From a virus: a stretch of DNA of 37,451 bases. Each line of letters opens with the position of its first letter. Position 1 is the stretch's first letter. Positions 870 through 30,891 of the stretch are shown here, in pieces. Position numbers and translations under genes: made by a program. The DNA lies in IMG/VR virus record IMGVR_UViG_3300045988_125650, positions 1-37,451 of that record; one strand, 5' to 3'. The notes under the pieces are model-generated. The model saw nothing but the letters and a program-made list of their open reading frames with translations. It did no database searches and was not told the DNA's origin.

Positions 870-1363
870 ACAATACCGAGCAAATAGAAACACCCTCTAA
901 AACGCCGTTTAAAGCCCCTCAGAGCGAAGATAACACAAAAAACGATAATGAACCCATTCAAGAGTTTTCAAGCCCACAGAACGCAAATAAAACGGTCGTG
1001 CCTTTCTTCAAGGATATGTGGGAAGACAGCGAAGAAACCGCCCTTACCGTGGGTATTCCAACCATAAAGGAATTCTGGAACACCACGCCTAAACAATTCA
1101 ATAAATATGTAAGGGCTTATCAACGAAGATTAACTGACATATTCAAGCTAACGGACATAAACAATCACCAACTCGGACTATATGTCAGAACTGCATACGC
1201 TGATGTATGGAGTGATAAAAACAAATACCCTAAAAAACCACAAATGATAGATTTGGACATCTTCCAGTTAGAAGAAAAAGAACCGTCTAAACGAAAACTC
1301 TCAGAACAAGAAGTTCAAGAGTTTCTCGAAAAACGAAGAAAAACAGACAGGAAAAATAAATAA
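597..1363 (+). CDS. Tail assembly chaperone gpGT fusion product made by a -1 frameshift at 857-863 (T-part 862-1363)
   Basis: The -1 frame is open from 851 (stop at 848-850) through 1363. This is the conserved G/GT arrangement upstream of tape measure genes in tailed phages. Confidence 0.55.
857..863 (+). promoter_or_regulatory. Slippery heptamer T_TTT_TTA for a -1 programmed ribosomal frameshift (G to GT)
   Basis: X_XXY_YYZ pattern in the zero frame of the 597 ORF, 2 codons before its stop. The -1 frame is open from 851 to 1363. Confidence 0.6.
897..998 (+). repeat. Dispersed composite repeat, copy 1 (inside the T-part of gpGT; translated ..KAPQSEDN..)
   Basis: A-motif GTTTAAAGCCCCTCAGAGCGAAGATAA plus B-motif AGCCCACAGAACGCAAATAAAACGGTC. 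Confidence 0.6.
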
Positions 1364-9030: not shown

Positions 9031-10695
9031 ATGGCAAAATACATTCAAAAAACAAGTCCGAACCTTGATATTAGAGCAAGCCGAGGCTGGTGCTTACAAT
9101 ATGCAGACGATGTGGTTAATGCACCAGTTCGTAGAGAATCGGCAGGGCTAGAATACTTAGCTCAAAGGGCAGCAGGAAATATTCACGAAGAAGAACCTCC
9201 TGTCGGTCTTTGGGTTCCAGTCTTCTTCGATATCACAAGCGGAGAATATGATCCCTACGAACACGTAGGTTGGGCGTTTAAGCACGGAGATGGAAGGATC
9301 GAGATTCATGACAGTGAAGTTCATAGCGGAGCGAGAGGAATTTATAACTCGATTGCTGAAATCTGTCAGTGGTTCAGCATATACGGACTTCGATATCTTG
9401 GTTGGAGTGAACGAATTGGCGGTGTTCAGATTGTAGAGAAAAGCGACAATGTTCGTGTAGTAAATTCAGGTGTTGGAGTAAATGTTCGCTATGAACCTAC
9501 AACTCAATCTGGAGTGTTCGCAACTTATCCAGATGGTTCAGATATTGAAATGGCAGGCTGGGTGTTCGGCGAAAATGTCAATGGTGATGATCGTTGGTTT
9601 AAGTCTAAGCGTTCGGGTGTTTATCTTCACTTCTCGGCTTTCGATGAAAAAGAAGGTTCATTGCCAAATCTGGGAGATTTTCGAAAAGTTCCACAACCTG
9701 AAAGTAAAGCAGTAGTTCCAGAAAATAAAGCTCCTGAATTTATTGAGTTCGAAAAAGAGTTCGACTTTGTAGACGAAGTAGTTCCAGCTCATGTTTCTAA
9801 CCAGTTCTATGGGCGAAAAAATCTCAAAGATGACAATGGAAAATACTTTGGTAATATTCCACAAGATTATGAAATTCAGAAAAAGTTTGTTGATGAATTA
9901 CAGCGAGATTCGCAACCAATTCGTGAAATTACAGTTCATAACACAGCAAATGATTCAATCGAGGCGACAACAAATGAATTTAGGCGCAAGGAAAGCTTTA
10001 AGTCTGCTCATCTTGTAGTTTCGAATGATAAAATCGTTCAAGTTGTGCCAAAAGGAAATACGGCTTTTACAAACGGTAATCACGAAAGCAATATTGAAAG
10101 CTTTACAATTGAATTTCTTGACAATGTGACTGATGAACGTTATGCTGAAGTTCTAAAGAAAGTTTCGCAAGCACTTGGTGTTGATAAAATAGGAAAACAC
10201 CGCGATCATTCTTCAACGGCTTGTCCAGCGCAACTTTCGGACGAAAGATTTAGTAAAATTCTGGCAAAAGTTAAGGGCGAAGATGAAGCTAAACCCGAAG
10301 CGCCAAAACAGCCTGAAAACGAGCCAAAAACACCTGAAAACGAAGGTATTATAACTCAAAATGAAGCTAAAAATGATATGCCGCAAAATAATAAAAGCGT
10401 AATTGGCGATATAGTAGTGCGATTAAACGATAAGGATTTTAAAATGTTAGAAGATTTGCAAAAAGAAGCAGTTAAAAATATTGGCGATATGGATTATGAG
10501 CCACGAATTAGCGAGAAGGCTAAAACTACAGTATATTTCATTGCTGACCTTGGGATTTTGACAAATATGTTAATTGCTACAATTTGCGTAATTTTAATTC
10601 CAAACGCAACAAAAGAGATTTTGGCGATCAGCGGTGCGGTTGCTACGGCATTTGCAGGACTAAAACCAATTTTCAAACTTGGTGCAAAGAAATAA
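9031..10695 (+). CDS. Multidomain endolysin: N-terminal Cys/His peptidase-like region, SH3b-like domain, Amidase_2 (N-acetylmuramoyl-L-alanine amidase) domain, and a C-terminal region with two TM helices
   Basis: Amidase_2/PGRP motifs (ITVHNTAN, SAHLVV, HRDH...TACP). P/E/K-rich linker. C-terminus VYFIADLGILTNMLIATICVILI / ILAISGAVATAFAGLKPIF is strongly hydrophobic. RBS GTAAGGAGAAAATAATG. Confidence 0.8.
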   Translation: MAKYIQKTSPNLDIRASRGWCLQYADDVVNAPVRRESAGLEYLAQRAAGNIHEEEPPVGLWVPVFFDITSGEYDPYEHVGWAFKHGDGRIEIHDSEVHSGARGIYNSIAEICQWFSIYGLRYLGWSERIGGVQIVEKSDNVRVVNSGVGVNVRYEPTTQSGVFATYPDGSDIEMAGWVFGENVNGDDRWFKSKRSGVYLHFSAFDEKEGSLPNLGDFRKVPQPESKAVVPENKAPEFIEFEKEFDFVDEVVPAHVSNQFYGRKNLKDDNGKYFGNIPQDYEIQKKFVDELQRDSQPIREITVHNTANDSIEATTNEFRRKESFKSAHLVVSNDKIVQVVPKGNTAFTNGNHESNIESFTIEFLDNVTDERYAEVLKKVSQALGVDKIGKHRDHSSTACPAQLSDERFSKILAKVKGEDEAKPEAPKQPENEPKTPENEGIITQNEAKNDMPQNNKSVIGDIVVRLNDKDFKMLEDLQKEAVKNIGDMDYEPRISEKAKTTVYFIADLGILTNMLIATICVILIPNATKEILAISGAVATAFAGLKPIFKLGAKK

Positions 10696-15488: not shown

Positions 15489-16019
15489 ATGGTAGTAAAA
15501 ACTGAAACAACTAAAAAAACCGTCTTAAAGAAGAAAGTAAAAGGTTATAATTACAAATACACAGACCTTGCTGGAATTCACGAGTATCTCGAAGAAAAAG
15601 GTTATACATATTGGCAAGAAGTGGAAGAACTCAACGGTGAAGAAAGAATTATCACTCATATTCTAAATAAAGATGACAAAGAAATTCGTAGAGCCGTAGG
15701 CTGTAAGATTATTTCGACTGCTCTTCAAGGAAAGCAAAATGCAACGCAAGAATACGGTTCAGGTATCACTTACGCTCGTAGATATTCACTCTTAATGGCA
15801 TTGGGGCTTGCAACTGAAGATGATGATGCAGAAATTATGACCAAAGGAACTACAACGAAATCATCACCACGCATTGATTTTTCAGAAGTTCGCCAACAAA
15901 TTAAAAACGCCCAAAGTATAGAAGAATTGATGAAGATTTATAGCACAATCCCAGAAAGTCTAACTCAATATTTCACAACGGATTTTACTAACGCAAAGAA
16001 TAGAATTAAAGGAGAATAA
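15489..16019 (+). CDS. ERF-family single-strand annealing protein
   Basis: The stretch GYNYKYTDLAGIHEYL ... GSGITYARRYSLLMALGLATEDDDAE matches the conserved core of the phage P22 Erf family (KYKY...SYARKY...GLFGIDD), recalled from memory. Canonical RBS AAGGAGAATAACAATG. Confidence 0.6.
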   Translation: MVVKTETTKKTVLKKKVKGYNYKYTDLAGIHEYLEEKGYTYWQEVEELNGEERIITHILNKDDKEIRRAVGCKIISTALQGKQNATQEYGSGITYARRYSLLMALGLATEDDDAEIMTKGTTTKSSPRIDFSEVRQQIKNAQSIEELMKIYSTIPESLTQYFTTDFTNAKNRIKGE

Positions 16020-20346: not shown

Positions 20347-20530
20347 AAGACAAACTGTAATTAGAACTTTAATATTCATATTGTTTGTTTTACCGTCTAT
20401 TGTTTTTTCATACTTGGCACTATTCGGAATTAACGTGAACAATAATCAAGGTTCTGCTTCATTCGTCTTAATGTTTATTGGCTTAATATCTATGGTAATT
20501 TCTAAACTCTCAGAATTGGAGACAAGATGA
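20324..20530 (+). CDS. Small membrane protein (68 aa, 2 TM)
   Basis: RBS AAGGAGCTAGAAGATG. Hydrophobic helices. Confidence 0.4.
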   Translation: MKEFIKNKRQTVIRTLIFILFVLPSIVFSYLALFGINVNNNQGSASFVLMFIGLISMVISKLSELETR

Positions 20531-20880
20531 ATTTCGATGAATACCAAAAAATAGCAATTCAATTTGATACTGCAAAATTAGCAATCACTGAAAAAGAACG
20601 TTATGACGGCTATATGGAGAAAGTTCTCGGCTTAGCTGGAGAAACTGGCGAAGTTATCGAGAAAATCAAAAAGCTATTACGAGATAAAAATGATGTTTTT
20701 AGTCTAACTCACGAAGAGCAAGTAGCACTCAAAAAAGAGCTTGGAGACGTGTTATGGTATCTTTCTGCAATCGCTTATTATAATGATTTTAGCTTGGAAA
20801 AAATCGCAACAGCTAACATCGATAAATTGATATGCCGAAGCGCACGTGGCAAAATTCACGGCAGTGGAGACAATCGCTAA
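20527..20880 (+). CDS. mazG: MazG-like nucleoside triphosphate pyrophosphohydrolase
   Basis: 117 aa. Motifs LGLAGETGEVIEKIKK and ELGDVLWYL typical of the MazG/NTP-PPase all-alpha fold. Confidence 0.7.
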   Translation: MNFDEYQKIAIQFDTAKLAITEKERYDGYMEKVLGLAGETGEVIEKIKKLLRDKNDVFSLTHEEQVALKKELGDVLWYLSAIAYYNDFSLEKIATANIDKLICRSARGKIHGSGDNR

Positions 20881-22248: not shown

Positions 22249-23229
22249 ATGACTAAACAACAGAAATCACAAGGTTTTGGAATTTTATTAGATGAAATCA
22301 ATAACGCTATCGAAGGACAAATCACAGAAAAACTATTAGAAGCAAAAAAGGAAATTCAAGCTGAATTAGATAAGCTACACTCACAGCAACCAACCGTAGT
22401 TATTCAAGGTCGCAAAAAAACTCAAATCAAGGGACTAAAGCATAAACAGCTGGACACCTTACTAAAAGTAGTTGGAATTGACCAGAACGCTTTACTCGTA
22501 GGTTCAGCGGGTAGTGGAAAAACTAAAGCTGGACAACAAGTAGCAGAAGCCCTAAAATTGGACTTTTACGCTATCAGTGTCGGCTCACAAACTTCAAAGT
22601 CGGACATTCTGGGCTATATGGATGCAAAGGGAGAATATGTTCAAACTGAATTTCGCAAGGCATATGAAAAAGGTGGGGTCTTCCTTATGGATGAAATTGA
22701 TGCAGGAAACTCAAATGTTTTGATTGTCTTAAACTCAGCCTTAGCGAACGGACTTTGTGCATTCCCAGACAAAATGGTAGAAAAACACAAGGACTTTCGT
22801 TTTATTGGAACCGCTAACACCTACGGAAATGGAGCAAATCGCCAGTATGTTGGTCGCAATCAGCTGGACAGTGCAACTCTCGACCGCTTTACTATCATTG
22901 ACTGGGAGATTGATGAAACTCTTGAGAAAAATCTCATTAGCTCATATGAAAGTGGAGAATATTGGCACGCAGTCATTAAGAAAATTCGAGACTATATTAA
23001 AAGGAATGAAATCAGAGCTATTGTTTCGCCACGTGCTACAATGAAAGGTGTTCAACTCTTAGGGCTTGGCTTTACTTTAGAAGAAACCTTGGAAATGTGT
23101 GTTTTTGGACAAGTTCCAGAAGATAAAATTCACAATGTTCGAAAAGAAGCTCAATCCGTGCCTAAACCTAAACACAAGGAAAAGCAAGAAGAAAAGAAAG
23201 AAGTTGAAGATTACCAGCTACCTTTCTAA
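22249..23229 (+). CDS. MoxR-like AAA+ ATPase (AAA_5/CbbQ-type)
   Basis: Walker A LLVGSAGSGKT, Walker B VFLMDEID, sensor TANTYGN and arginine finger. Single AAA+ module with an N-terminal extension. Confidence 0.75.
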   Translation: MTKQQKSQGFGILLDEINNAIEGQITEKLLEAKKEIQAELDKLHSQQPTVVIQGRKKTQIKGLKHKQLDTLLKVVGIDQNALLVGSAGSGKTKAGQQVAEALKLDFYAISVGSQTSKSDILGYMDAKGEYVQTEFRKAYEKGGVFLMDEIDAGNSNVLIVLNSALANGLCAFPDKMVEKHKDFRFIGTANTYGNGANRQYVGRNQLDSATLDRFTIIDWEIDETLEKNLISSYESGEYWHAVIKKIRDYIKRNEIRAIVSPRATMKGVQLLGLGFTLEETLEMCVFGQVPEDKIHNVRKEAQSVPKPKHKEKQEEKKEVEDYQLPF

Positions 23230-23244
23230 ATAAGGAGAAAAACA

Positions 23245-24195
23245 ATGATAGACTTATTAGCAAAAGCTACAGATGACACTCATCATCACCCAGAATATAA
23301 GTTATCGTGGGGCTATCTCGAAGAAGATAAAGAAGATGAAAACTTCGATAGAGAGGATACTGGCTTTTACACGAGAGAAGAAGAAATATTCGTTAAGGCC
23401 AAAGGATTAAATAATTTTATTCGTGCAATCCTTGATGATGACAAAAATCATTTCATAGGACAGAAAAATGAGCATAACTCAAGCCATAAACAAAAAGAAG
23501 CAGGCTTTAATTATTTCGACGATTGGGACAAATGCATTGATTGCTTTCTAAACAATCCCCTCTCATTGAAAGAATTCACGGAGAACGAAGAACAACTCAC
23601 AGAACACAATTCTTCTGGAAATAGTGTTGAATATGACAAAACTGGGGACTTCCTTGATGTATCAAAATTCTTAGGCGGAGATATGGATTGTTTCGGTAGT
23701 ATGACAGACGGAAATCTTCAAAATAGATATATGAATTTAATTATCACCATTGGAGGAAACGCAGGAATTACTAACGGAGAATTGCGAGCATACGCAGGAA
23801 TAATTCAAGAGATTGTGGACTTTCTGGAGAATAATAAAATTAGGTGTAAAGTGGAAGCATTCACCACGAACCAATGTTCCACACTTCAACTAACAGTCAA
23901 AGATTATGATGAACCTTTATCACTTTCAGACATTTTCGTTATCATGAACCCAGACTTTTTCCGCAGACTTCATTTTAGAGTTGCAGAGAGAAGCCCTACC
24001 ATTAACTGGAGTTATGGAGATGGAACTGTTGCACCATACATAGAAGCCCTTGCTGAAGAAAATACACCGACATTGTATTTTAAGAAAAGAAAATATTTCG
24101 GAGATATGGAAAAACTAAAAGAAGAAACCTACAAAGAAATCCAAAATGCTATTGATAACTGGGACAAAAACCCAACACCACTCATAACTTTATAG
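23245..24195 (+). CDS. Hypothetical protein (316 aa), probable functional partner of the MoxR-like ATPase
   Basis: Coupled to the ATPase gene (RBS AAGGAGAAAAACAATG 13 nt after its stop). No clear VWA MIDAS motif. Confidence 0.45.
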   Translation: MIDLLAKATDDTHHHPEYKLSWGYLEEDKEDENFDREDTGFYTREEEIFVKAKGLNNFIRAILDDDKNHFIGQKNEHNSSHKQKEAGFNYFDDWDKCIDCFLNNPLSLKEFTENEEQLTEHNSSGNSVEYDKTGDFLDVSKFLGGDMDCFGSMTDGNLQNRYMNLIITIGGNAGITNGELRAYAGIIQEIVDFLENNKIRCKVEAFTTNQCSTLQLTVKDYDEPLSLSDIFVIMNPDFFRRLHFRVAERSPTINWSYGDGTVAPYIEALAEENTPTLYFKKRKYFGDMEKLKEETYKEIQNAIDNWDKNPTPLITL

Positions 24196-24198
24196 AGT

Positions 24199-24227
24199 GG
24201 TGTAATTTTTTATTTGTGTGATATACT
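24199..24227 (+). promoter_or_regulatory. Candidate promoter: GTGTAA ... TG-A-TATACT (shared motif TGTGATATACTTAAA), copy 1
   Basis: Extended -10-like box; the same 15-mer recurs at 31040-31054 upstream of the portal gene. Confidence 0.35.
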
Positions 24228-24264
24228 TAAAACATAATATTAAATTAAAAAGGAAAAATCTAAA

Positions 24265-24561
24265 ATGGACAACAAACAGCGGAAAAATCCGGATTTTCCT
24301 ACGAACTGCAAAATATGCGGTGGAATTTTAGACCCCCTACCATATTTTAATGACGTGAATGCTTATGAAGATGAGCAAGGAAGATTTTGCAAAGTATTAG
24401 CACGCTTTCCTAACGGAGAGCCACGAACCTTTGAATACACTTTAGCTTGCAGGAACAATCCTAACGAACACCCACAACTAAAAGTTGTTGAAACACCTTG
24501 CGTGGGTTTCAGAAGTGTCATTCGAGCAGATAAATATGATGTCAATAAATTAAAAATATAG
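24265..24561 (+). CDS. Zinc-finger protein (98 aa; CKICGG ... C..C)
   Basis: Cys pairs at the N-terminus plus internal Cys residues. Confidence 0.45.
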   Translation: MDNKQRKNPDFPTNCKICGGILDPLPYFNDVNAYEDEQGRFCKVLARFPNGEPRTFEYTLACRNNPNEHPQLKVVETPCVGFRSVIRADKYDVNKLKI

Positions 24562-24667: not shown

Positions 24668-24952
24668 ATGAATAAAGAACAAGCAGAGAAATTTATTTCT
24701 AAACAAAAGTGGATTTTCGCTAAGACTTACGCTAAAACTGCACCACACGAGTATATAATGGTATTCCCTAACTCACCACACCGAAAGGAAGCCGAAGAGT
24801 TCTATCAGTTAATTCAAAAAGACGGCTATGTAAAAAAATTCTTCACCAAGGAATACAAATACATAGACATCGCTGGCTATAAATACTGGACAATGATCAG
24901 CAAAGATGGCTTTAATAAGGATTGGTCAATCAATAGGGAACCGTTAAAATGA
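24668..24952 (+). CDS. Hypothetical protein (94 aa), first gene of the modification-like operon
   Basis: RBS (G)AGGAATAACAATG. Stop overlaps the next start (AAATGAAAATC). Confidence 0.5.
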   Translation: MNKEQAEKFISKQKWIFAKTYAKTAPHEYIMVFPNSPHRKEAEEFYQLIQKDGYVKKFFTKEYKYIDIAGYKYWTMISKDGFNKDWSINREPLK

Positions 24953-25506
24953 AAATCATAGTCAAAGCAGTCAAAGAACGAGAACCATATGTAAATATCA
25001 TCAAGCAGGAAATTCCAGAAGTCATAGTTGTCTGGGACAAAAAAAAGGATGCAATGGACACTTATCTTCGAGCATTAAAAACAGCAGGAGATGAAGCAAC
25101 TATTCAGCTGGAAGATGATATTGAGCTAACCACAAATTTTACTCAAAAGGCAACTTCAATCATTTCAGAAGTCAAAGAAAAACACGGCGACATCGCTATT
25201 CAATTTTTCTCAATGAGAAAAGCGGACATTGAAATTGGAAGCAGACTAGAAAATGGAAGCTCATACTTAATGGCACAAGCCACCTACCTACCACCAGGAA
25301 TGGCAAAAGACTTCCTACAATGGACTAACAATATCAATTTGGAGGAATATGGCAATGGAGTAGATGAATTATTCGGAGATTATCTCAAATCAAACAAATT
25401 GAAATATTGGATTGCAGTTCCTTCATTAGTTCAACACCGAAAAATAAAATCAGCAATCGACCCAAGGCGTTCATCAGCCAGACAATCGAAAACCTTTCAG
25501 AAATAA
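24949..25506 (+). CDS. Putative GT-A-fold (family 25-like) glycosyltransferase-like protein (185 aa)
   Basis: N-terminus MKIIV...REPYVNIIKQ and a DxD-like LEDDIEL resemble the GT25/Lic2A family. Weak, from memory. Confidence 0.3.
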   Translation: MKIIVKAVKEREPYVNIIKQEIPEVIVVWDKKKDAMDTYLRALKTAGDEATIQLEDDIELTTNFTQKATSIISEVKEKHGDIAIQFFSMRKADIEIGSRLENGSSYLMAQATYLPPGMAKDFLQWTNNINLEEYGNGVDELFGDYLKSNKLKYWIAVPSLVQHRKIKSAIDPRRSSARQSKTFQK

Positions 25507-25527
25507 TAAGAAATAAGGAGAAATAAA

Positions 25528-26028
25528 ATGGAAAATGAAAAAATTATTCGTGTAGTAAAATCAACTGGAATTGGCAACAATTCACTCGGAGCTTTCGACA
25601 ATGCACTCTTTAATGCAGGTGTTCATAATTACAACCTTATCAGACTTTCGAGCGTTGTTCCAGAAGGATACACAGTTGTAAAATCAGACGGAAAAGCTCT
25701 CACAGACGGAAAATGGGGCGACAAACTCTATGTCGTTATGGCCATTCAACACGCAGATAAACCAGGGGAAGAGGCTCACGCTGGAATTGGCTGGGCGTAT
25801 GATAAAAACAATCCAGAACACGGACTATTCGTGGAACACGAAGGCACAAGCCTTGAATACGTGGAAACAGCTATTCGCACAAGCCTTAAAGACCTTTTTG
25901 AAAGCCGAGGCTTAGAGATGGGAGAAATTGATATGATTACTTCTTCAATCAAATGCGAAGATAAACCAGTAGTAGCATTTTGTGTATCAGCATTCGAGGC
26001 ACAAGGCTGGAATAACTTGCGAGGTTAA
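25528..26028 (+). CDS. Pyruvoyl-dependent arginine decarboxylase (PvlArgDC/PdaD/AaxB)-like protein
   Basis: 166 aa, the typical size. The stretch LGAFDNALFNAGVHNYNLIRLSSVVP closely matches the PvlArgDC core (archaeal PdaD [23 protein letters not shown], recalled from memory), including the Ser-Ser self-cleavage site. Confidence 0.65.
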   Translation: MENEKIIRVVKSTGIGNNSLGAFDNALFNAGVHNYNLIRLSSVVPEGYTVVKSDGKALTDGKWGDKLYVVMAIQHADKPGEEAHAGIGWAYDKNNPEHGLFVEHEGTSLEYVETAIRTSLKDLFESRGLEMGEIDMITSSIKCEDKPVVAFCVSAFEAQGWNNLRG

Positions 26029-26029
26029 A

Positions 26030-27163
26030 ATGGCTACTCGACTATACAAAACAACCGACGTATTCGAAGAAGGGCTCAACCGAATGCGGTGGCTCTTCGA
26101 AGAGTTCAATAACAATGTATGCGTGAATTTTTCTGGTGGAAAAGATAGCACCGTTGTTCTTAATTTAGCACTTATGGTGGCAAGAGAAAGAAACGCCCTA
26201 CCTTTAAAGGTATTCTTCCTTGACCAAGAAGCAGAATGGCAAGCTACAATCGACGAAATCAAAGCGGTTATGTATGACCCAGAAGTCGAGCCGTATTGGT
26301 TTCAAGTTCCTTTCAAAATGGAAAATTCAGCCTCAACCGAAGGAAAATGGCAGAAAATCTGGGGCAAAGGTGAAGAGTGGATTAGACCACAAGACCCTAT
26401 CTCAATTAAAGACATTGGTTATGATACTTCCGACTTAGAGTTTTACGACTTATTCTCACATTTTCTGGACTGGAAATTCCCAAAAACTAAAGCGTGTTTA
26501 GTGGGAGGGGTTCGAGCTGAAGAAAACCCTAACCGTGCGTTGGGGCTAACTCGTATGGCTACCTACAAATGGATTACGTGGGGCAAAAAAACTGAAATGG
26601 CTAAAAACGCTAAAATTCACTTCACCTTTTACCCAATTTATGACTGGACTTACGCTGATGTATGGAAAGCTATCGCAGACAATAACTGGCGATATTGCAA
26701 GATTTACGACAAACAGTATCAATATGGCTATAACATTCAAAATATGCGAGTATCATCATTGCACCATTCGACGAGCCTATCTTCACTTTACTCATTACAA
26801 GAACTAGAACCAGAAACTTACGAGGCAATCGTTCATCGAATGAGTGGAGTAGATACCGTAGGAAAACTCGGAAAAGAAGACCACTATGTCAAAGACTTAC
26901 CTTTTATGTTCACAGACTGGGTGGAATACCGAGATTATCTTTTGGAAAACTTAATTAAAAGGGAAGATGAAAAAGAAATCTTCAGACACGCTTTTGAAAA
27001 ATTTGATAACAAATATTCGAAGTATATTGATATGGAGAGAATTGCTCAACTCGAGATAACTTGCATTATATCGAATGACTTATATATGGTTAAATTAAAA
27101 AACGCTGAGAGACACCACGACTTCATCGCAGCGGATAAAAGGAGAATTGCAGAAAATGGTTAA
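26030..27163 (+). CDS. IbrA/DndC-like PP-loop ATP pyrophosphatase (PAPS-reductase fold with DUF3440-like C-terminal domain)
   Basis: PP-loop motif VNFSGGKDSTVVL. A ~200-aa extension after the PAPS-reductase core. ATG at 26030 with RBS GAGGT (the track start at 25982 overlaps the upstream gene). Confidence 0.75.
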   Translation: MATRLYKTTDVFEEGLNRMRWLFEEFNNNVCVNFSGGKDSTVVLNLALMVARERNALPLKVFFLDQEAEWQATIDEIKAVMYDPEVEPYWFQVPFKMENSASTEGKWQKIWGKGEEWIRPQDPISIKDIGYDTSDLEFYDLFSHFLDWKFPKTKACLVGGVRAEENPNRALGLTRMATYKWITWGKKTEMAKNAKIHFTFYPIYDWTYADVWKAIADNNWRYCKIYDKQYQYGYNIQNMRVSSLHHSTSLSSLYSLQELEPETYEAIVHRMSGVDTVGKLGKEDHYVKDLPFMFTDWVEYRDYLLENLIKREDEKEIFRHAFEKFDNKYSKYIDMERIAQLEITCIISNDLYMVKLKNAERHHDFIAADKRRIAENG

Positions 27164-27815
27164 AATAGAAGACTTCACACAAAAACACACAATCGAAGAA
27201 GACCGCCCTATATACAAGGTGGACAATTCCACGCTACCGGAACAAGTGAGGCACAACGCTTGTGCAAATATCTGTTTCATTCCTATTGAAAAGGTTCAAG
27301 CTAACGACTACAACCCTAACGCAGTGGCAACTCACGAAATGAAACTTCTTTATGTTTCTGTTAAAGCGGACACCTACACAATGCCCGTAGTTACCATTTA
27401 CGACCCAGAAATTAAGAAGTATGTCATCATTGATGGTTTCCACCGATACTCAACAATGCGAAGAAACAAAGACATTTATGAAATGAATGACGGTTATCTT
27501 CCTTGCGTAGTCCTAGACAAAAACATTAATGAGCGAATGGCTTCCACAGTTCGCCACAATCGAGCAAGAGGCAAACACTCAGTAAATGGAATGTCTACAA
27601 TCGTTTTCGAGATGTTAAAAAATGGCAAAACAGATGAACAAATCTGTAATGAACTTGGACTTGAAGTCGAAGAACTTGTTCGCCTAAAACATATCACTGG
27701 CTACTCTAAACTCTACCAGAATGTCCAATACTCTAAAGCGTGGGAAACGGACAATCAAATTGAAATAAAACGCAAATACAAGCAGGAGCACCCAGATGAG
27801 CAAATCACAATCTAA
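27147..27815 (+). CDS. ParB/Srx-fold (ParB N-terminal domain) protein, IbrB/DndB-like
   Basis: DGxHR-type motif IIDGFHRY, HNRARG. Overlaps the IbrA-like stop. Confidence 0.7.
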   Translation: MQKMVKIEDFTQKHTIEEDRPIYKVDNSTLPEQVRHNACANICFIPIEKVQANDYNPNAVATHEMKLLYVSVKADTYTMPVVTIYDPEIKKYVIIDGFHRYSTMRRNKDIYEMNDGYLPCVVLDKNINERMASTVRHNRARGKHSVNGMSTIVFEMLKNGKTDEQICNELGLEVEELVRLKHITGYSKLYQNVQYSKAWETDNQIEIKRKYKQEHPDEQITI

Positions 27816-28428
27816 GGACACGAAGTCAAAAGACACAAAGTTAAAGAAGATTAAACTTTCTAAAATTAAGCCGTATAATCTCAATGCACGAGATAATAAC
27901 AAATACGCAGTTCAAGCCGTAGTAGAAAGTATTAAACGCTACGGCTACACAAACCCAATCATCGTTGATGAAAAGAATGTTATCATTGCTGGACATACAC
28001 GCTACCTTGCACTTAAGGAATTAAATTTTGATGAAGTGGAAGTTATCGTATCAAAGATGAGTGAAGATGAAGCTAAAGAATACCGTATCATCGACAACAA
28101 AACTAACGAGCTATCGCAGTGGGATGAGAAAAATCTTCAGTTTGAATTACGAGAATTTGAACAAAGGGACTACGCTCAAGAACTATTCCCAGAAATCAAG
28201 GACAATATCAAAATTCAAGACACCACGGAGTATGATATTGATGAGAAAGATTTTGAAAGAATTGAGAAAAAACTCGGAGAAGATTTTGAAGAAAAGATGA
28301 ACAAAAAAACTTCATCTGATGACTTTCTGGAAATCAAGTGTCCGCACTGTGGCAGAACATTCTTAATGCCAATTCCAGACCTACTGCACAAATTCAAAAT
28401 TGAAAAATTAAACAGGGAGCAAGAATAA
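27796..28428 (+). CDS. ParB N-terminal-domain protein with C-terminal zinc ribbon (paralog A)
   Basis: Motif IIAGHTRYLA; KEYRIIDNKTNE; C-terminal CPHCG. Overlaps neighbouring genes. Confidence 0.65.
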   Translation: MSKSQSKDTKSKDTKLKKIKLSKIKPYNLNARDNNKYAVQAVVESIKRYGYTNPIIVDEKNVIIAGHTRYLALKELNFDEVEVIVSKMSEDEAKEYRIIDNKTNELSQWDEKNLQFELREFEQRDYAQELFPEIKDNIKIQDTTEYDIDEKDFERIEKKLGEDFEEKMNKKTSSDDFLEIKCPHCGRTFLMPIPDLLHKFKIEKLNREQE

Positions 28429-28976
28429 TGATTTCAAAGAAAACAGTCCATATTGATGAAATTGTTCCATACTGGAGAAACCCACGAGATAACAACGAGA
28501 ACGCTATCATAGCAGTCGCTAAGTCTATTGAAAAGTTTGGTTATCAAGCTCCAATCCTCGTGGATAGTAAAATGACAATTATTGCTGGACACACACGCTA
28601 CAAAGCATTACGCAGATTACGCACTGAATACGTAGAAGTTGTAGTATCAGATATGTCGCAAAAACAAGCCAAGGAATACCGCATTGTAGATAACCGAACA
28701 AACGAGTATTCTAACTGGATTATTGATAATGTTCTTGCTGAATATGAGGAAATCAAAGCCCCAGACCTTCTGGATGATTTATTCCCAACTATTCGTGGCA
28801 AAGAAGAAATCGAAGAACAAGAAGAAGAATATATTTCACCACGAGAGCAAGCTAAAACACTCACAATCGAAGACAATGATTATATTGAAATAATCTGCCC
28901 TAACTGTTTTAATGGATTTGAAATGACCTACAAGGAGTTTAAAAAACTCTGTAAAGAGCAGAATAAAAAATTCTAA
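28428..28976 (+). CDS. ParB N-terminal-domain protein with C-terminal zinc ribbon (paralog B; tandem duplicate of 27796-28428)
   Basis: Motif IIAGHTRYKA; KEYRIVDNRTNE; C-terminal CPNC. The start overlaps the upstream stop (TAATGA). Confidence 0.65.
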   Translation: MISKKTVHIDEIVPYWRNPRDNNENAIIAVAKSIEKFGYQAPILVDSKMTIIAGHTRYKALRRLRTEYVEVVVSDMSQKQAKEYRIVDNRTNEYSNWIIDNVLAEYEEIKAPDLLDDLFPTIRGKEEIEEQEEEYISPREQAKTLTIEDNDYIEIICPNCFNGFEMTYKEFKKLCKEQNKKF

Positions 28977-28997: not shown

Positions 28998-29489
28998 ATG
29001 GCAACTAAAATACCACTTTCAAGAATACCGTCTGCACCAAAAGTGAAACCAAAAAAGAACAGTGGGCGTGGCTATCACCCAGACGGCACACCCTACAATC
29101 CAACTGGAAAAGGTGGCTTCGGAGACAATCCACAGAACCGAGCTAACGGACACTGGGACAGTAAAATGACCCCAAGCTTTCAATACAAACGCTTTTTGAA
29201 TATGGACAGTGCCTCACTTATTGAATACGCTAAACAATGGAGAATTATTCAATTAAACAAAACCGAAATCAAAAGCGGAAAATATGATGGAGAATTCCCC
29301 CACACCGTGGTGGAAGAAATGGCACTTCGCCGAGTTCTTGCTGGTATGAAAAGCCTTGCAGATGTGAAAGAAATAACAGACCGTGTTGAGGGGCGAGCTA
29401 CCTACAAAGTCGAACAGAAAATTGAACACGACTTCGCCAACTACTCAAGCGAAGACCTTGAAAAACTTGCGAGAAGCTTAAATGAATAA
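28998..29489 (+). CDS. terS: Terminase small subunit (putative)
   Basis: 163 aa, immediately upstream of and overlapping the large terminase gene. Basic N-terminus. Confidence 0.55.
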   Translation: MATKIPLSRIPSAPKVKPKKNSGRGYHPDGTPYNPTGKGGFGDNPQNRANGHWDSKMTPSFQYKRFLNMDSASLIEYAKQWRIIQLNKTEIKSGKYDGEFPHTVVEEMALRRVLAGMKSLADVKEITDRVEGRATYKVEQKIEHDFANYSSEDLEKLARSLNE

Positions 29490-30891
29490 CGAACAACTTG
29501 CACTCATAAGCATTGAACTGGCGATTAGGAAAAGTCGCCAGTCTTTTCTATGGTTTGTCAAAAATGTTTTTTCGGCATCTTTTGGATTGAATGAATTCGT
29601 GTATGGAAAATACATTGAAGAAGTCATTACGGGAATGGAAGAACACAAATGGACTATGGACGTTTCAGCTCGAGACCACTTCAAAAGCACACGCTTATAC
29701 GCAGAAGTTATGTATGATTTATTCACCACTCAAACCGACCTAGAATGTAGATACTTTTCTTACCAAGCTGGAATGAGTGGCTACCACCTAGGAAAAATCA
29801 AGCGTATGATTGAACAAAATCCATTCTTCCACCCTAAAATGTTCATAGACCAAAGCCCTACATCTTTATCTGTATTACGCTACACAACACCTAACGGAGC
29901 TATTTATGAAGCAAGACCAGAAGGACTACTCTCATTTAAACGTGGTATTCACGCTGAACGCATTTACGTGGACGACCCACTTAAAGACCCAGAGAACAAA
30001 CTCGCACCGACAGTCATTCATAAAATCAATAATGTTATCAAGCTGGAAATCTTCCCAATGGTGAAAAAAGGTGGCTACTATCGTGTTGTTGGAACACCAC
30101 AGACAAATCACGACTTTTTCTTTGATAAAGGACTTCAGAGAAGACTTCACACAAACATTCGCCCAGCTATTAAAAGTGAAAAGAAAAAAGAAGTTATCTT
30201 TCCAGAATGGAAATCATACGAGGAATTAAATGATATTCGCAAAACCATTGGGGAGAAAGCTTTCAATCAGGAATATATGACTAAACCTGCATATAGTGAA
30301 AATTCTTATATTGAGAGAAAAGACCTTAACAAATGCGTAGATATTGAACTTGAAGACTTCGACAATAAGCCTTACTCACGCCCAGAGGGTGTAGATATTG
30401 TGGCAGGATTTGATATTGGTAAAAAAGCACACCCTAGTCATTTTGCTATTTTCGAGAGAACAATCAATCCAGAAACAAATCAATATCAATATAAACAAAT
30501 TCACCAGAAGTTTTTAGACCACGTGGAATACAAAGACCAAGTGGAATATATCAACCTCGCAGTGGAAAAGTATGAAATAGACATTCTACGCTATGACAAC
30601 ACCAGAGCGGAATTTGAAGCATTCGCAGAACAACAACTCTTACCTAACTGTATGATACCTGTTCAATTCAATATACGAACTAACAACCTTATGGCAGTTA
30701 GTCTTAATAAAGTCATTCAAGAAGAACGAGTTAAATTCATAGATGAAGAAAGACAAATAGACCAAATTCTTCAAGTCAATAATGAATTAAAAGCAATCGA
30801 AAGCCCACTGGGACACGGAGATAGTTTTTGGAGCAACGCCTTAGCTTTATACGAAGAAAAACCAAAAGAATATAGTATCAGGTTCTTATAA
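29482..30891 (+). CDS. terL: Terminase large subunit
   Basis: 469 aa. N-terminal ATPase and C-terminal nuclease region (VVGTPQTNHDFFFDKG, DIVAGFDIG). Position before the portal gene. Confidence 0.8.
   Translation: MNNEQLALISIELAIRKSRQSFLWFVKNVFSASFGLNEFVYGKYIEEVITGMEEHKWTMDVSARDHFKSTRLYAEVMYDLFTTQTDLECRYFSYQAGMSGYHLGKIKRMIEQNPFFHPKMFIDQSPTSLSVLRYTTPNGAIYEARPEGLLSFKRGIHAERIYVDDPLKDPENKLAPTVIHKINNVIKLEIFPMVKKGGYYRVVGTPQTNHDFFFDKGLQRRLHTNIRPAIKSEKKKEVIFPEWKSYEELNDIRKTIGEKAFNQEYMTKPAYSENSYIERKDLNKCVDIELEDFDNKPYSRPEGVDIVAGFDIGKKAHPSHFAIFERTINPETNQYQYKQIHQKFLDHVEYKDQVEYINLAVEKYEIDILRYDNTRAEFEAFAEQQLLPNCMIPVQFNIRTNNLMAVSLNKVIQEERVKFIDEERQIDQILQVNNELKAIESPLGHGDSFWSNALALYEEKPKEYSIRFL

Follow-up and report, generated by a model that had tools for sequence, protein, structure and literature searches.

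A pyruvoyl-dependent arginine decarboxylase homologue in the variable slot of a terminase-adjacent phage IbrAB cassette

Gene organization of the locus

The window, the whole analysed stretch of 37,451 nucleotides from a 37-kb uncultured phage, contains seven ORFs forming one tightly packed + strand block that leads into terS and terL (Table 1), and the ORF map and junctions agree with the overlapping or near-abutting arrangement described in the sequence-only reading. Neighbouring genes overlap at four junctions (4, 17, 20, and 1 nt) and are separated at three (21, 1, and 21 nt). Most starts in the block have a Shine-Dalgarno-like sequence 5' of them, and no convincing + strand terminator was found inside the block, where candidate-site counts did not exceed those in shuffled sequence. 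The ATG at 26030 gives the 377-aa IbrA, while its longest ORF begins at GTG 25982; the 222-aa IbrB ORF starts at TTG 27147, but ATG 27156 is the more likely start.

Table 1. Features of the block and its neighbours (positions in the window)
Feature	Position	Strand	Basis or motif
c1-domain protein, 94 aa	24668-24952	+	ORF; motif W-x-F-A-K-T...P-H-x-Y
GT-A fold glycosyltransferase (GT25-like), 185 aa	24949-25506	+	predicted structure; E-D-D metal/nucleotide-sugar motif
Pyruvoyl-dependent arginine decarboxylase homologue (PvlArgDC), 166 aa	25528-26028	+	PF01862
IbrA-like PP-loop ATP pyrophosphatase/adenylyltransferase, 377 aa	26030-27163	+	PAPS_reduct (SGGKDS) and helical C-terminal DUF3440
IbrB-like ParB/Srx-fold protein, 222 aa	27147-27815	+	motif DGFHRY; PHROG 2159
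ParB_N protein, 210 aa	27796-28428	+	PF02195; motif GHTRY; C-terminal CPHC
ParB_N protein, 182 aa, paralogue of the 210-aa protein	28428-28976	+	PF02195; C-terminal CPNC
Probable small terminase subunit (terS)	28998-29489	+	position only
Large terminase subunit (terL)	29482-30891	+	PHROG 5909, PHROG 38
AAA_5 (CobS/MoxR-like) ATPase, DUF7192 protein, 98-aa Cys-containing ORF	22249-24561	+	upstream neighbours

The PHROG families of terL are annotated "terminase large subunit" and its NCBI TPA name is "terminase". The terS product had no confident match in Pfam or PHROG; its gene lies directly 5' of terL, which it overlaps, and shows 44% identity to the same-position gene in lineage L264. Upstream, the AAA_5 and DUF7192 pair recurs before the cassette in L003 and L264 and, as judged from size and BLAST matches, in L031, a VWA/CobT_C protein replaces it in L008, and a homologue of the 98-aa ORF was seen only in L264; membership of these three genes in the cassette is uncertain.

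The arginine decarboxylase homologue

The 166-aa protein matches PF01862 with E=1.6e-27 (96.8 bits, cut-off 22.7), and residues D35, N47, S52/S53, and E109 of the Methanocaldococcus jannaschii PvlArgDC (1n2m) align with D24, N36, S41/S42, and E103 of the phage protein, which bears out the Ser-Ser processing site recognized earlier. All catalytic residues are kept, and self-cleavage is predicted between Ser41 and Ser42. The protein is 45–52% identical to cellular (bacterial) PvlArgDC and scores under the TIGR00286 equivalog cut-off. With a dN/dS of ~0.05 against a 98%-identical variant, it is under strong purifying selection; from its sequence it looks catalytically competent, and its product is probably agmatine.

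IbrA and the other cassette proteins

Profile searches and AF2/Foldseek agree with the families first proposed for PvlArgDC, IbrA with DUF3440, IbrB, the two ParB_N proteins, and the GT-A enzyme. IbrA matches PAPS_reduct (Pfam, E=3.8e-16) and PHROG 2302 (E=7.7e-77); DUF3440 scores 24.0 bits, slightly below the cut-off of 25, and is precomputed for a 98%-identical cluster representative. A structure search with the AF2 model (pLDDT 81.5) returned FAD synthase/FMNAT, CysH/APS reductase, and CysD as the nearest folds, with TilS/MesJ at rank 38 (E about 2e-3), so the modelled fold appears closest to phosphate/sulfate adenylyltransferases (FMNAT, CysD, CysH) and not to TilS. These nearest-fold enzymes handle AMP-phosphate or AMP-sulfate linkages, not nucleobases, which counts against the proposed agmatine-based DNA modification and leaves the TilS-like adenylation of a base carbonyl, suggested earlier, a weak proposal.

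The 94-aa c1 protein had no match in Pfam, PHROG, or NCBIfam. Of the 96 loci that have an IbrA match (non-independent contigs counted), 66 carry a c1 homologue upstream of IbrA, and 17 of 47 homologues have the domain as a fusion with a class-I SAM methyltransferase of the small-molecule/N-methyltransferase type; c1 belongs to the core of the cassette, which it opens. The GT-A model (AF2 pLDDT 96.2) matches GT25-like enzymes in the PDB (Foldseek: Mimivirus R655, beta-1,4-GalT, GLT25D1) as well as TarP, and its top BFVD match is the glycosyltransferase of Microbacterium phage Hendrix (TM 0.93). Across its homologues D57 is invariant and E55 nearly so, and PHROG 854 ("glucosyltransferase") matches weakly.

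IbrB is recognized by PHROG 2159 only (E=8.5e-70), with a blastn match to "IbrB" of Streptococcus phages and a weak SerK match; its homologue follows at +1 of IbrA in 83 loci with DGFHRY kept. The 210-aa and 182-aa ParB_N proteins pass the Pfam cut-off for PF02195 (E=5.7e-9 and E=4.1e-7, respectively). The former matches PHROG 620 and 498 as well as the ParB domain at the N-terminus of MTase_II in PADLOC (E=4.9e-20), and the latter has PHROG and MTase_II matches likewise. Each has one C-terminal CPxC, which 50 of 52 homologues keep and none has twice, and Pfam zinc-finger matches fall below cut-off, so that the zinc ribbons once assigned to these two proteins are not upheld. A third ParB is also found in L264 and L068.

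Distribution of the cassette and its variable slot

IbrA-like genes form 3,434 protein clusters at E<1e-10 and are carried by 218 sequenced phage isolates. From 482 IMG/VR matches to IbrA, the loci of the best 80 were fetched and examined, in which the order c1, GT-A, a variable slot, IbrA, IbrB, ParB, terS, and terL recurs; the seven-gene block very probably belongs to this widespread terminase-adjacent cassette. The core consists of c1, IbrA, the NTP-binding ParB/Srx-fold protein IbrB, and one or two additional ParB_N proteins, and the slot just 5' of IbrA holds interchangeable tailoring enzymes. Besides PvlArgDC, its occupants are a DNA-MTase-like protein, GNAT, GT2, HNH, and one unassigned family, and minimal cassettes lack any tailoring enzyme.

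PvlArgDC is a rare occupant of this slot with a fixed position 5' of IbrA. It immediately precedes IbrA in each of five diverged lineages of phage (the window, L260, L003/L005, L008, and L264), between which its identity is 45–67%, and the GT and IbrA genes on either side belong to different sub-lineages. The phage copies form one monophyletic clade of their own, which points to a single capture, so that the five lineages did not acquire the gene independently. P0003 (L259), a member of this clade, is flanked by NAD-epimerase genes, and its 2.2-kb contig carries no IbrA. Elsewhere in phages, PF01862 genes were found in 0 of 50,697 isolates and on one IMG/VR contig, in the same cassette.

None of the best 80 IMG/VR loci carries PvlArgDC. 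Since the cassette is thus almost always without it, agmatine is not an intrinsic substrate, and, given the minimal cassettes, the core reaction needs no agmatine, which can be at most one lineage-specific building block. Of the agmatine-utilising operon in the sequence-only reading, the PvlArgDC–IbrA linkage stands, whereas agmatine as a general substrate does not. As HNH, a packaging-associated gene, also occupies the slot, the slot may merely be a permissive insertion site, and this alone could explain the repeated position of PvlArgDC. No characterization of a PvlArgDC-bearing IbrAB cassette was found in the literature searched, in line with the novelty first claimed; what is new is the presence of PvlArgDC in the slot of a widespread phage cassette already seen without it.

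Proposed function and alternatives

The best overall explanation, held tentatively, is a PvlArgDC-bearing variant of a DNA-modifying cassette with agmatine as a building block. The PvlArgDC–IbrA linkage across diverged lineages and the low dN/dS speak for it; against it count the lack of PvlArgDC in the best 80 loci, the minimal cassettes, the possibly permissive slot, the single capture, and P0003. The chances that the cassette modifies DNA appear a little below even; this function is suggested by the ParB domains, the SNF2 and DNA-MTase-like neighbours, and published analogues. Counted towards a DNA target are the three ParB/Srx proteins, two of them of the DNA-methyltransferase-fusion type, and the DNA-MTase-like and HNH genes of the slot. 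Among the analogues, phage DNA T-dioxygenases require ParB proteins as activators and have neighbourhoods rich in GTs, ParBs, and terminases (PMC13229309), TarP-like phage GT-A enzymes glycosylate DNA (10.1101/2023.12.21.572611), and a phage PAPS-domain/Dam fusion leads to escape from Dnd (10.1101/2021.05.05.442762). In addition, gp109 of PhiW-14 transfers putrescine to DNA, and decarboxylases and acetyltransferases are documented as combinatorial tailoring enzymes (PMC8989533). An agmatine-derived DNA modification is plausible by analogy with the ParB-dependent phage clusters and putrescinyl-thymine; that agmatine does end up in such a modification is doubtful.

In the proposed mechanism, the cassette would be expressed late and modify DNA after replication as an anti-defence measure. 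ParB proteins may load on or prime phage DNA, and IbrA could use ATP to adenylylate an oxyanion, a phosphate or similar, on DNA or a precursor. The GT-A and slot enzymes would then assemble a lineage-specific adduct, for which PvlArgDC may turn host arginine into agmatine as an amine building block or nucleophile, much as free putrescine is placed on activated 5-hmdU in PhiW-14. Hydroxymethyl "handle" enzymes (5mYOX, dUMP/dCMP hydroxymethylase, 5-HMUDK, and aGPT-Pplase) were not found among the window ORFs scanned, which counts against this mechanism. If the cassette decorates phage DNA, the PvlArgDC variant would hint at the chemistry performed.

Alternatively, PvlArgDC could be an auxiliary metabolic gene that acts on its own and merely lies in a recombination-permissive slot of an IbrAB cassette to which it is unrelated. 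It would flood the cell late in infection with agmatine, serving as a divalent counter-ion in DNA condensation and packaging, as feed for host agmatine/putrescine pathways, or for pH control. This is rather unlikely, though several points favour it: the enzyme is ordinary in its identity to cellular PvlArgDC and its kept catalytic residues, so that there is no sign of a new substrate, HNH and other unrelated genes occupy the same slot, nearly all phages run the cassette without it, and P0003 is not beside IbrA. Gene order and the lack of a terminator further suggest co-transcription with the packaging genes, and phage and virus polyamine enzymes, including pyruvoyl ADCs of another fold, are documented (PMC9992855). 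However, the abutting or overlapping arrangement with IbrA is kept despite divergence to 45% identity and swapped GT and IbrA lineages, PF01862 is nearly absent from phages outside this cassette, and no other polyamine-pathway gene was detected in this genome by the window ORF scans.

It is unlikely that, instead of modifying DNA covalently, IbrAB targets nucleotides or small molecules or has a regulatory role, with IbrB as a ParB-type DNA/NTP switch and IbrA making or destroying an adenylylated metabolite, agmatine being a possible acceptor and counter-defence or late-gene activation the outcome. Annotation does name IbrAB "co-activators of prophage gene expression" (eib), the original experiments reportedly having been done in E. 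coli. Enzymes with the folds nearest to IbrA also produce AMP conjugates of small molecules, for example FAD and APS, the methyltransferases in c1 fusions are of the small-molecule type, and ParB-fold proteins are versatile NTP-binding switches (PMC12704722). On the other hand, the cassette is tightly linked to MTase-fusion-type ParB, SNF2, a DNA-MTase-like gene, and terminase, and tailoring by combinations of GT, GNAT, and MTase is seen more typically where a polymer is decorated than with a signalling molecule.

Decoration of an envelope polymer or virion protein, for example in superinfection exclusion with PvlArgDC supplying a cationic substituent, is improbable. GT25, GT2, and GNAT are classic LPS and teichoic-acid tailoring families, the GT25-like and GT2 folds and TarP similarity fit them, and JGI names one GT homologue [quoted passage not shown]; however, membrane/export components are absent, the genes lie in a late packaging operon of phages in which no lysogeny module was detected, the ParB, SNF2, and MTase partners suggest DNA, and the TarP-like phage GT-A enzymes are proven DNA glycosyltransferases (10.1101/2023.12.21.572611). 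Finally, that IbrA is a true PAPS reductase or DndC-type sulfurtransferase, serving sulfur assimilation or phosphorothioation as its "PAPS reductase" name in Pfam/PHROG and weak DndC/BrxP matches (PADLOC) might suggest, is extremely improbable, and sulfur chemistry appears unlikely because the canonical SGGKDS PP-loop is present, homologue comparison found no invariant cysteine and no ECGLH-type C-terminal motif in the family, DndA/D/E partners are absent, and NCBIfam scores are low (CysH, 21–32 bits against cut-offs of 154–165; DndC, 27 against 290), so that of the earlier "IbrA/DndC-like" label the IbrA part holds and the DndC part does not extend beyond the superfamily.

Comparison with known systems

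The same core, PAPS_reduct with DUF3440 beside a DGFHRY ParB/Srx protein, occurs in the IbrA/IbrB pairs of the E. coli ECOR-9 island and of phages (Streptococcus thermophilus CHPC877, Flavobacterium FCL-2/FCV-1, Lactobacillus AQ113, and Microbacterium Hendrix) annotated as "IbrA/IbrB" or "PAPS reductase / ParB-like"; no biochemical function for these pairs was found in the literature searched. Hendrix shares the GT-A and has GT2, MTase, and GNAT genes before IbrA. Unlike the window, none of the known pairs has PvlArgDC, and in the Streptococcus, Lactobacillus, and Flavobacterium phages an SNF2 helicase lies upstream of IbrAB instead of c1/GT. The Streptococcus and Lactobacillus pairs lie away from the terminase genes, and that of FCV-1 lies between terL and the portal gene.

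ParB-dependent 5mYOX clusters with GT-A (PMC13229309; Pyle et al., 10.1101/2023.12.21.572611) share with window-type cassettes ParB, TarP-like GT-A, methyltransferases, endonucleases, frequent terminase adjacency, and combinatorial tailoring. In contrast, the window cassette lacks 5mYOX/TET-JBP and C5-MTase, and the ATP-dependent IbrA stands where those clusters would have the handle-making enzyme. In thymidine hypermodification (PhiW-14 with alpha-putrescinylthymine, SP10, ViI, and M6; PMC8989533), a free amine or amino acid is put on an ATP-activated DNA residue, and the adduct is tailored by decarboxylases and acetyltransferases; the outcome proposed for the window is likewise a cationic DNA adduct of the polyamine type. 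These pathways rely on dUMP hydroxymethylase, a P-loop 5-hmdU DNA kinase, aGPT-Pplase transferases, and PLP decarboxylases, none of which was found among the window ORFs scanned; the decarboxylase of the window depends instead on a pyruvoyl group, and its most likely substrate is free arginine.

DndC/DndB, BREX type 4 BrxP, and the PAPS-domain/Dam fusion (10.1101/2021.05.05.442762) likewise combine a PAPS-reductase-fold PP-loop ATPase with a ParB-fold protein in a setting of DNA modification or anti-defence, whereas the window IbrA lacks the DndC cysteines and Fe-S features, has no DndA/D/E, and falls far short of the family cut-offs. TilS (lysidine) and TiaS (agmatidine) join lysine or agmatine to an ATP-activated nucleobase; TilS has a PP-loop, and archaeal agmatine is made by PvlArgDC. 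TiaS is not a PP-loop enzyme. The window IbrA belongs to the PAPS-reductase branch with TilS/MesJ only a distant structural match, and the cassette lacks tRNA-binding domains.

Cellular PvlArgDC (M. jannaschii MJ0316, PDB 1MT1/1N13/1N2M; bacterial homologues in Saccharibacteria and Actinomycetota) shares the fold family, the Ser-Ser site, and the D/N/E catalytic/substrate residues with the window protein, which differs in being phage-encoded in its own clade, below the TIGR00286 cut-off, and in an IbrAB cassette instead of a cellular context. The phage AdoMetDC-derived pyruvoyl ADC/ODC (Li et al., PNAS 2023, PMC9992855) are phage-encoded pyruvoyl agmatine-makers, as the window PvlArgDC is predicted to be, but they have the AdoMetDC/speD fold instead of that of PF01862 and are read as marine-phage polyamine AMGs unlinked to IbrAB.

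Organization and Distribution of the IbrAB Cassette

All seven open reading frames that the sequence-only reading had placed ahead of terS and terL were recovered on the plus strand, packed as tightly as described: at four junctions the genes overlap (by 4, 17, 20, and 1 nt), and at three they are separated by 21, 1, and 21 nt. Most of the starts have a Shine-Dalgarno-like sequence ahead of them, and a promoter/terminator scan, the counts of which equaled those of shuffled sequences and which serves only to show that the block is uninterrupted, found no convincing internal terminator within it. The profile matches of the block, to PvlArgDC (E=1.6e-27), PAPS_reduct (E=3.8e-16), and, for its two final genes, ParB_N, are much too strong to be due to chance. 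The gene anatomy of that reading is right and a functional module was correctly sensed, but the proposed “agmatine-utilising operon” should rather be seen as a widespread, terminase-adjacent IbrAB cassette in a PvlArgDC-bearing form.

At E<1e-10, IbrA-like proteins fall into no fewer than 3,434 clusters, of which many are approximately 50% identical and lie on phage-sized contigs; 482 matches were obtained in IMG/VR, and 218 phage isolates carry an IbrA-like gene. Neighboring genes were clustered over IbrA-matching loci, namely 80 from IMG/VR, five in isolate phages, those to which PvlArgDC had led, and that of the window. The order that recurs is c1, a GT25-like GT-A gene, a variable slot, IbrA, IbrB, a second ParB gene, terS, and terL (c1 at 66 loci, GT25-like GT-A at 49, IbrB at 83, second ParB at 60), and the smallest cassettes hold no more than c1, IbrA, and one or two ParB genes. 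Microbacterium phage Hendrix carries, in order at the right genome end, a GT25-like gene, a “glucosyltransferase”, a “methyltransferase”, GNAT, and IbrA, where both quoted names come from the annotation of the record and have no Pfam support here. A second architecture, distinct from this one, occurs in phages of Streptococcus, Lactobacillus, and Flavobacterium, where a more distant IbrAB pair follows an approximately 400-aa SNF2-family helicase instead of c1 and the glycosyltransferase.

The slot just upstream of IbrA is occupied, in varying combinations, by a small N6/N4 DNA-methyltransferase-like gene, GNAT, GT2, HNH, a 167-aa family (c16), or PvlArgDC, the last only at loci reached through PvlArgDC itself and at none of the 80 IMG/VR IbrA loci (80 of the 482 matches). 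Family c16, which shares the position of PvlArgDC between the GT25-like gene and IbrA, has the invariant residues H72-x-D74 and H114/H117, which are reminiscent of a small metal-dependent (cupin/2OG-like) enzyme; neither c16 nor c1 gave a Pfam, PHROG, or PDB sequence match. Of 47 c1 homologues, 17 are fusions with a class-I SAM methyltransferase (small-molecule/N-methyltransferase type); the fused domains are Methyltransf_25/11/12/23, and the best PDB matches of the fusions are small-molecule and N-methyltransferases, e.g., ToxA, a sugar N,N-dimethyltransferase, and BamL. The 185-aa product, read from sequence as GT-A-like, was indeed modeled with a GT-A fold (pLDDT 96) that matches GT25-like enzymes and TarP and is nearly perfectly superposable on the Hendrix glycosyltransferase (TM 0.93).

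Directly upstream of the cassette, several lineages carry an AAA_5 (CobS/MoxR-like, PHROG 249 “porphyrin biosynthesis”) ATPase and a DUF7192 protein, followed in the window and in L264, another PvlArgDC-bearing phage contig, by a small Cys-containing ORF; in L008, a further such lineage, the corresponding site holds a VWA/CobT_C protein. These genes may form a conserved ATPase/VWA pair with a link to the IbrAB cassette.

Coordinates of features in the window and in the fetched loci (L numbers)
Feature	Locus	Position (nt)
Tape-measure gene	Window	1363-4119
Amidase endolysin	Window	9031-10695
ERF-family recombinase (early/middle region)	Window	15489-16019
MazG-type nucleotide pyrophosphohydrolase (early/middle region)	Window	20527-20880
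AAA_5 + DUF7192 region	Window	22249-24195
AAA_5 + DUF7192 region	L003	5436-7376
AAA_5 + DUF7192 region	L264	2601-4910
AAA_5 + DUF7192 region	L031	3041-4987
Small Cys-containing ORF	Window	24265-24561
c1, stand-alone	Window	24668-24952
c1 homologues, among them methyltransferase fusions	L019, L022-L024, L030, L039, L049, L073-L075, L086, L087, L093-L098	
IbrA	Window	26030-27163
IbrA	L264	6495-7688
IbrB	L264	7685-8344
CPxC C-termini of ParB_N proteins	Window	28330-28428 and 28890-28976
Packaging and head genes	Window	28998 onward
c16	L048	7498-7998
c16	L065, L075, L076, L085, L087	
SNF2 helicase upstream of IbrA/IbrB	L001	3485-4720
SNF2 helicase upstream of IbrA/IbrB	L002	3533-4702
SNF2 helicase upstream of IbrA/IbrB	L011	3168-4379
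SNF2 helicase upstream of IbrA/IbrB	L012	3842-5011
PvlArgDC protein P0003	L259	427-927

Family and Predicted Chemistry of IbrA

The assignment of the 377-aa protein as a PP-loop ATP pyrophosphatase was borne out by a PF01507 (PAPS_reduct) score of 60.1 bits against a cut-off of 22.5 and by the canonical SGGKDS motif. The protein also matches PHROG 2302 (E=7.7e-77), and its PP-loop, S35-G-G-K-D-S-T41, is invariant across 17 homologues. The DUF3440 score of the window protein is 24.0 bits vs a cut-off of 25, and both the cluster representative, 98% identical to it, and most homologues have a precomputed PF11922 match. None of the cysteines is invariant among the 17 homologues, and a single column reaches 55% Cys across 80 homologues. 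Because the family possesses no conserved Cys, sulfur chemistry of the CysH or DndC type is excluded: a DndC (phosphorothioation) identity was rejected on the absence of Cys/Fe-S features and Dnd partners and on a score of 27 bits vs 290, and a CysH, true PAPS reductase, or sulfur AMG identity on the missing catalytic Cys and scores of 21-32 bits vs 154-165.

The nearest folds of the IbrA model (pLDDT 81.5) are human and yeast FAD synthase/FMN adenylyltransferase, CysH, APS reductase, and CysD, with TilS/MesJ, NcsA, and LarE much lower in the list; searches of PDB sequences with the family returned only marginal, partial matches (FAD synthase, CysD). Activation of a base carbonyl in the manner of TilS, which had been proposed from the sequence, was not sustained, since MesJ/TilS appears only at rank 38 (E=1.9e-3), behind 34 PAPS-reductase-branch chains, two NAD synthetases, and one NcsA, and IbrA gave no TilS Pfam or NCBIfam match. 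The nearest folds, the invariant PP-loop, and the lack of a conserved Cys suggest that IbrA may act as an ATP pyrophosphatase that transfers an adenylyl group onto an oxyanion rather than as a TilS-like activator of base carbonyls.

Two irregularities were observed among IbrA sequences. In some near-identical 37-39 kb assemblies, IbrA is called at only 202 aa (P0297 and P0302, in the cluster of the window protein), corresponding to the C-terminal half from approximately residue 176, which reflects either an assembly or frameshift error or a natural disruption of the PP-loop half. In L264, IbrB is 70% identical to that of the window and IbrA only approximately 43% identical to any other IbrA; either the two proteins evolved at strikingly different rates or IbrA was replaced.

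IbrB and the ParB_N Proteins

The call of three ParB/Srx-fold proteins was likewise supported, in two cases by PF02195 scores above the cut-off (the 210- and 182-aa proteins, both with the motif GHTR) and in the third, IbrB (222 aa, motif GFHR), only via PHROG 2159 (E=8.5e-70) and a weak SerK match; IbrB had no match among PDB sequences. The IbrB gene overlaps that of IbrA and shows DNA similarity to Streptococcus-phage genes annotated as IbrB, where IbrA also lies directly upstream. A gene of the same ParB cluster (c0) occupies position +1 of IbrA in 83 loci, and its commonest motif variants are all DGFHRY. A canonical partition function (ParB/ParABS) was rejected: TIGR00180 scored 38.8 and 33.9 bits vs 58.45, the proteins are only 182-222 aa long, and no ParA was found among the window ORFs scanned. 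The C-terminal zinc ribbons ascribed to two of these proteins are not complete, since each protein has a single CPxC, never paired within one chain. Of 52 homologues, 50 keep this CPxC, which is never duplicated and could form half of an intermolecular zinc bridge (zinc-hook-like dimerization) instead of a zinc ribbon.

The Predicted Arginine Decarboxylase and Its Linkage to IbrA

The pyruvoyl-dependent arginine decarboxylase assignment of the 166-aa protein and its predicted Ser41-Ser42 self-processing site are supported by PF01862, with 96.8 bits (cut-off 22.7; E=1.6e-27) over positions 4-156 of the 161 in the profile, and by the 1n2m alignment, in which LIRLS41-S42VVP corresponds to LIRIS52-S53 of the Methanocaldococcus jannaschii (M. 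jannaschii) enzyme. The Ser-Ser site is invariant in 9/9 aligned relatives, including phage-clade members, and is also kept in L264. In addition, D24, N36, and E103, invariant in the nine-relative alignment, align with Asp35, Asn47, and Glu109 of MJ0316, which we take to be its catalytic and substrate residues (structures 1MT1/1N13). The NCBIfam equivalog level was missed (TIGR00286, 74.5 bits vs 106.95; NF009064, 51.5 vs 207), so that PvlArgDC is a divergent member whose exact substrate is not guaranteed by the profile. The aligned catalytic residues, the cellular homology, and a dN/dS of approximately 0.05 (window vs a 98%-identical variant) nevertheless make conversion of arginine to agmatine the likely reaction.

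The closest cellular homologues, 45-52% identical, belong to Saccharibacteria/Patescibacteria and Actinomycetota and lie in ordinary cellular neighborhoods. Alignment-based scans of JGI metagenomes and GTDB genomes returned cellular homologues from these groups (42-52% identity), except for L104, a 1.2-kb partial contig at 60% identity; these scans gave no prophage and no host clue, and the metagenome loci all lacked IbrA. Phage collections hold virtually no PF01862 genes: tblastn against 50,697 phage genomes gave no match, a single-protein pattern scan of IMG/VR returned nothing, and an alignment-based scan of IMG/VR retrieved one contig, L264, with the same cassette. The pyruvoyl arginine decarboxylases in a survey of phage polyamine genes are only of the AdoMetDC fold, unrelated to the PF01862 fold of the window enzyme (Li et al., PMC9992855).

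In five lineages, the gene directly 5' of IbrA, which it abuts or overlaps, is PvlArgDC: the window and, with the identity of their copies to that of the window in brackets, L260 (67%), L003/L005 (57-59%), L008 (54%), and L264 (45%). The phage copies form one clade in neighbor-joining trees, which implies a single capture. Their flanks are mosaic: the L260 glycosyltransferase is essentially unrelated to that of the window, the N-terminus of the L260 IbrA is closer to PvlArgDC-less cassettes, and the L008 IbrA branches deep in the IbrA tree. PvlArgDC was therefore kept beside IbrA through extensive recombination or repeatedly placed there. P0003, a 54%-identical protein nested inside the phage clade, is encoded between NAD-dependent epimerase/dehydratase genes on a 2.2-kb AT-rich contig without IbrA. 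The linkage pattern favors functional coupling of PvlArgDC with IbrA; a recombination hot spot at the slot would explain the position too, because the slot also holds HNH.

The Phage and Its Possible Host

The window is a siphovirus-like genome of approximately 37 kb with tape-measure, tail, endolysin, and replication/recombination genes followed by packaging and head genes. Near-identical 36.5-37.5 kb genomes have been assembled many times, and proteins of the window are identical to NCBI TPA entries of “Caudoviricetes sp.” (DAV59300.1, DAV59314.1, and others). Its terL has no match in 50,697 phage genomes, and there are no cultured relatives. Tail and lysin proteins match those of Bacillota phages at only 23-44%, pointing loosely to a possible Bacillota-type host. 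The endolysin has an unusual architecture, in which Amidase_2 is fused to approximately 135 N-terminal aa that share 38-44% identity with “membrane associated proteins” from phages of Lactococcus garvieae/petauri. MazG could bear on nucleotide-pool manipulation.

Proposed Function and Comparison with Known Systems

IbrA/IbrB (“PAPS reductase + ParB-like”) is among the commonest unexplained gene pairs in tailed phages, and its genes are routinely mis-scored as sulfur-metabolism AMGs. The location of the pair in a conserved terminase-adjacent cassette with swappable glycosyl-, acetyl-, and methyltransferases, together with the missing sulfur-chemistry cysteines, casts it as a candidate system for DNA decoration. 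Of the general points, the most valuable is that the cassettes seem to make up a large and unexplored family of such candidates, and cultured phages carry a version without PvlArgDC (Microbacterium phage Hendrix, Flavobacterium phages FCL-2 and FCV-1, and S. thermophilus phage CHPC877). DNA is the favored target on account of the three ParB/Srx proteins, two of which belong to the type that forms the N-terminal domain of ParB-methyltransferase fusions, the DNA-methyltransferase-like, HNH, SNF2, and terminase neighbors, and published analogues.

A possible route can be outlined, in which IbrA would adenylylate an oxyanion of DNA (an activated base position or a phosphate of the backbone or a terminus), after which AMP would be displaced by an amine or sugar. 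In the window lineage, PvlArgDC would supply this amine as locally made agmatine; the resulting adduct, possibly a backbone modification of phosphoramidate type, would be added during packaging. Incorporation of agmatine into DNA, argued by analogy, is a tentative hypothesis, albeit a testable chemical one that the rare PvlArgDC variant provides with agmatine as the building block; its main rival, about equally likely, is that PvlArgDC is a stand-alone agmatine-producing AMG in a permissive slot. The full proposal, that the cassette is an unrecognized, very widespread ATP-dependent DNA-modification machine with an agmatine-derived adduct in the window lineage, is improbable as a whole; if true, the adduct would be the first guanidinium-bearing (agmatinyl) one in DNA. 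If agmatine is not incorporated, PvlArgDC would be, as far as found, the first phage PF01862-type arginine decarboxylase described and a third enzyme type among virus-encoded arginine decarboxylases.

The TilS/TiaS analogy should be replaced by FMNAT/CysD-type adenylyl transfer and by ParB-dependent and putrescinyl-thymine precedents. In phage PhiW-14, free putrescine is installed on activated 5-hmdU, and decarboxylases and acetyltransferases tailor the modification combinatorially (PMC8989533), and a vibriophage evades Dnd by means of a PAPS-domain/Dam fusion (10.1101/2021.05.05.442762). Genes for thymidine hypermodification (P-loop 5-hmdU DNA kinase, aGPT-Pplase/AADT) were not detected among the window ORFs scanned, and hypermodification based on hmU or hmC was rejected, as no handle-making enzyme was found among them. 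Phage thymine dioxygenases depend on ParB proteins for activation, and the neighborhoods of these dioxygenases are rich in glycosyltransferases (31%), ParBs (27%), and terminases (19%) (PMC13229309), and TarP-like GT-A enzymes glycosylate phage DNA (10.1101/2023.12.21.572611). Unlike 5mYOX clusters, the window ORFs scanned, small ORFs being covered only in part, include no TET/JBP-type dioxygenase or ThyS-type hydroxymethylase to provide the 5hm handle; like the 5mYOX/ParB/GT clusters, the window possesses a ParB partner and a TarP-like GT-A adjoining the terminase genes.
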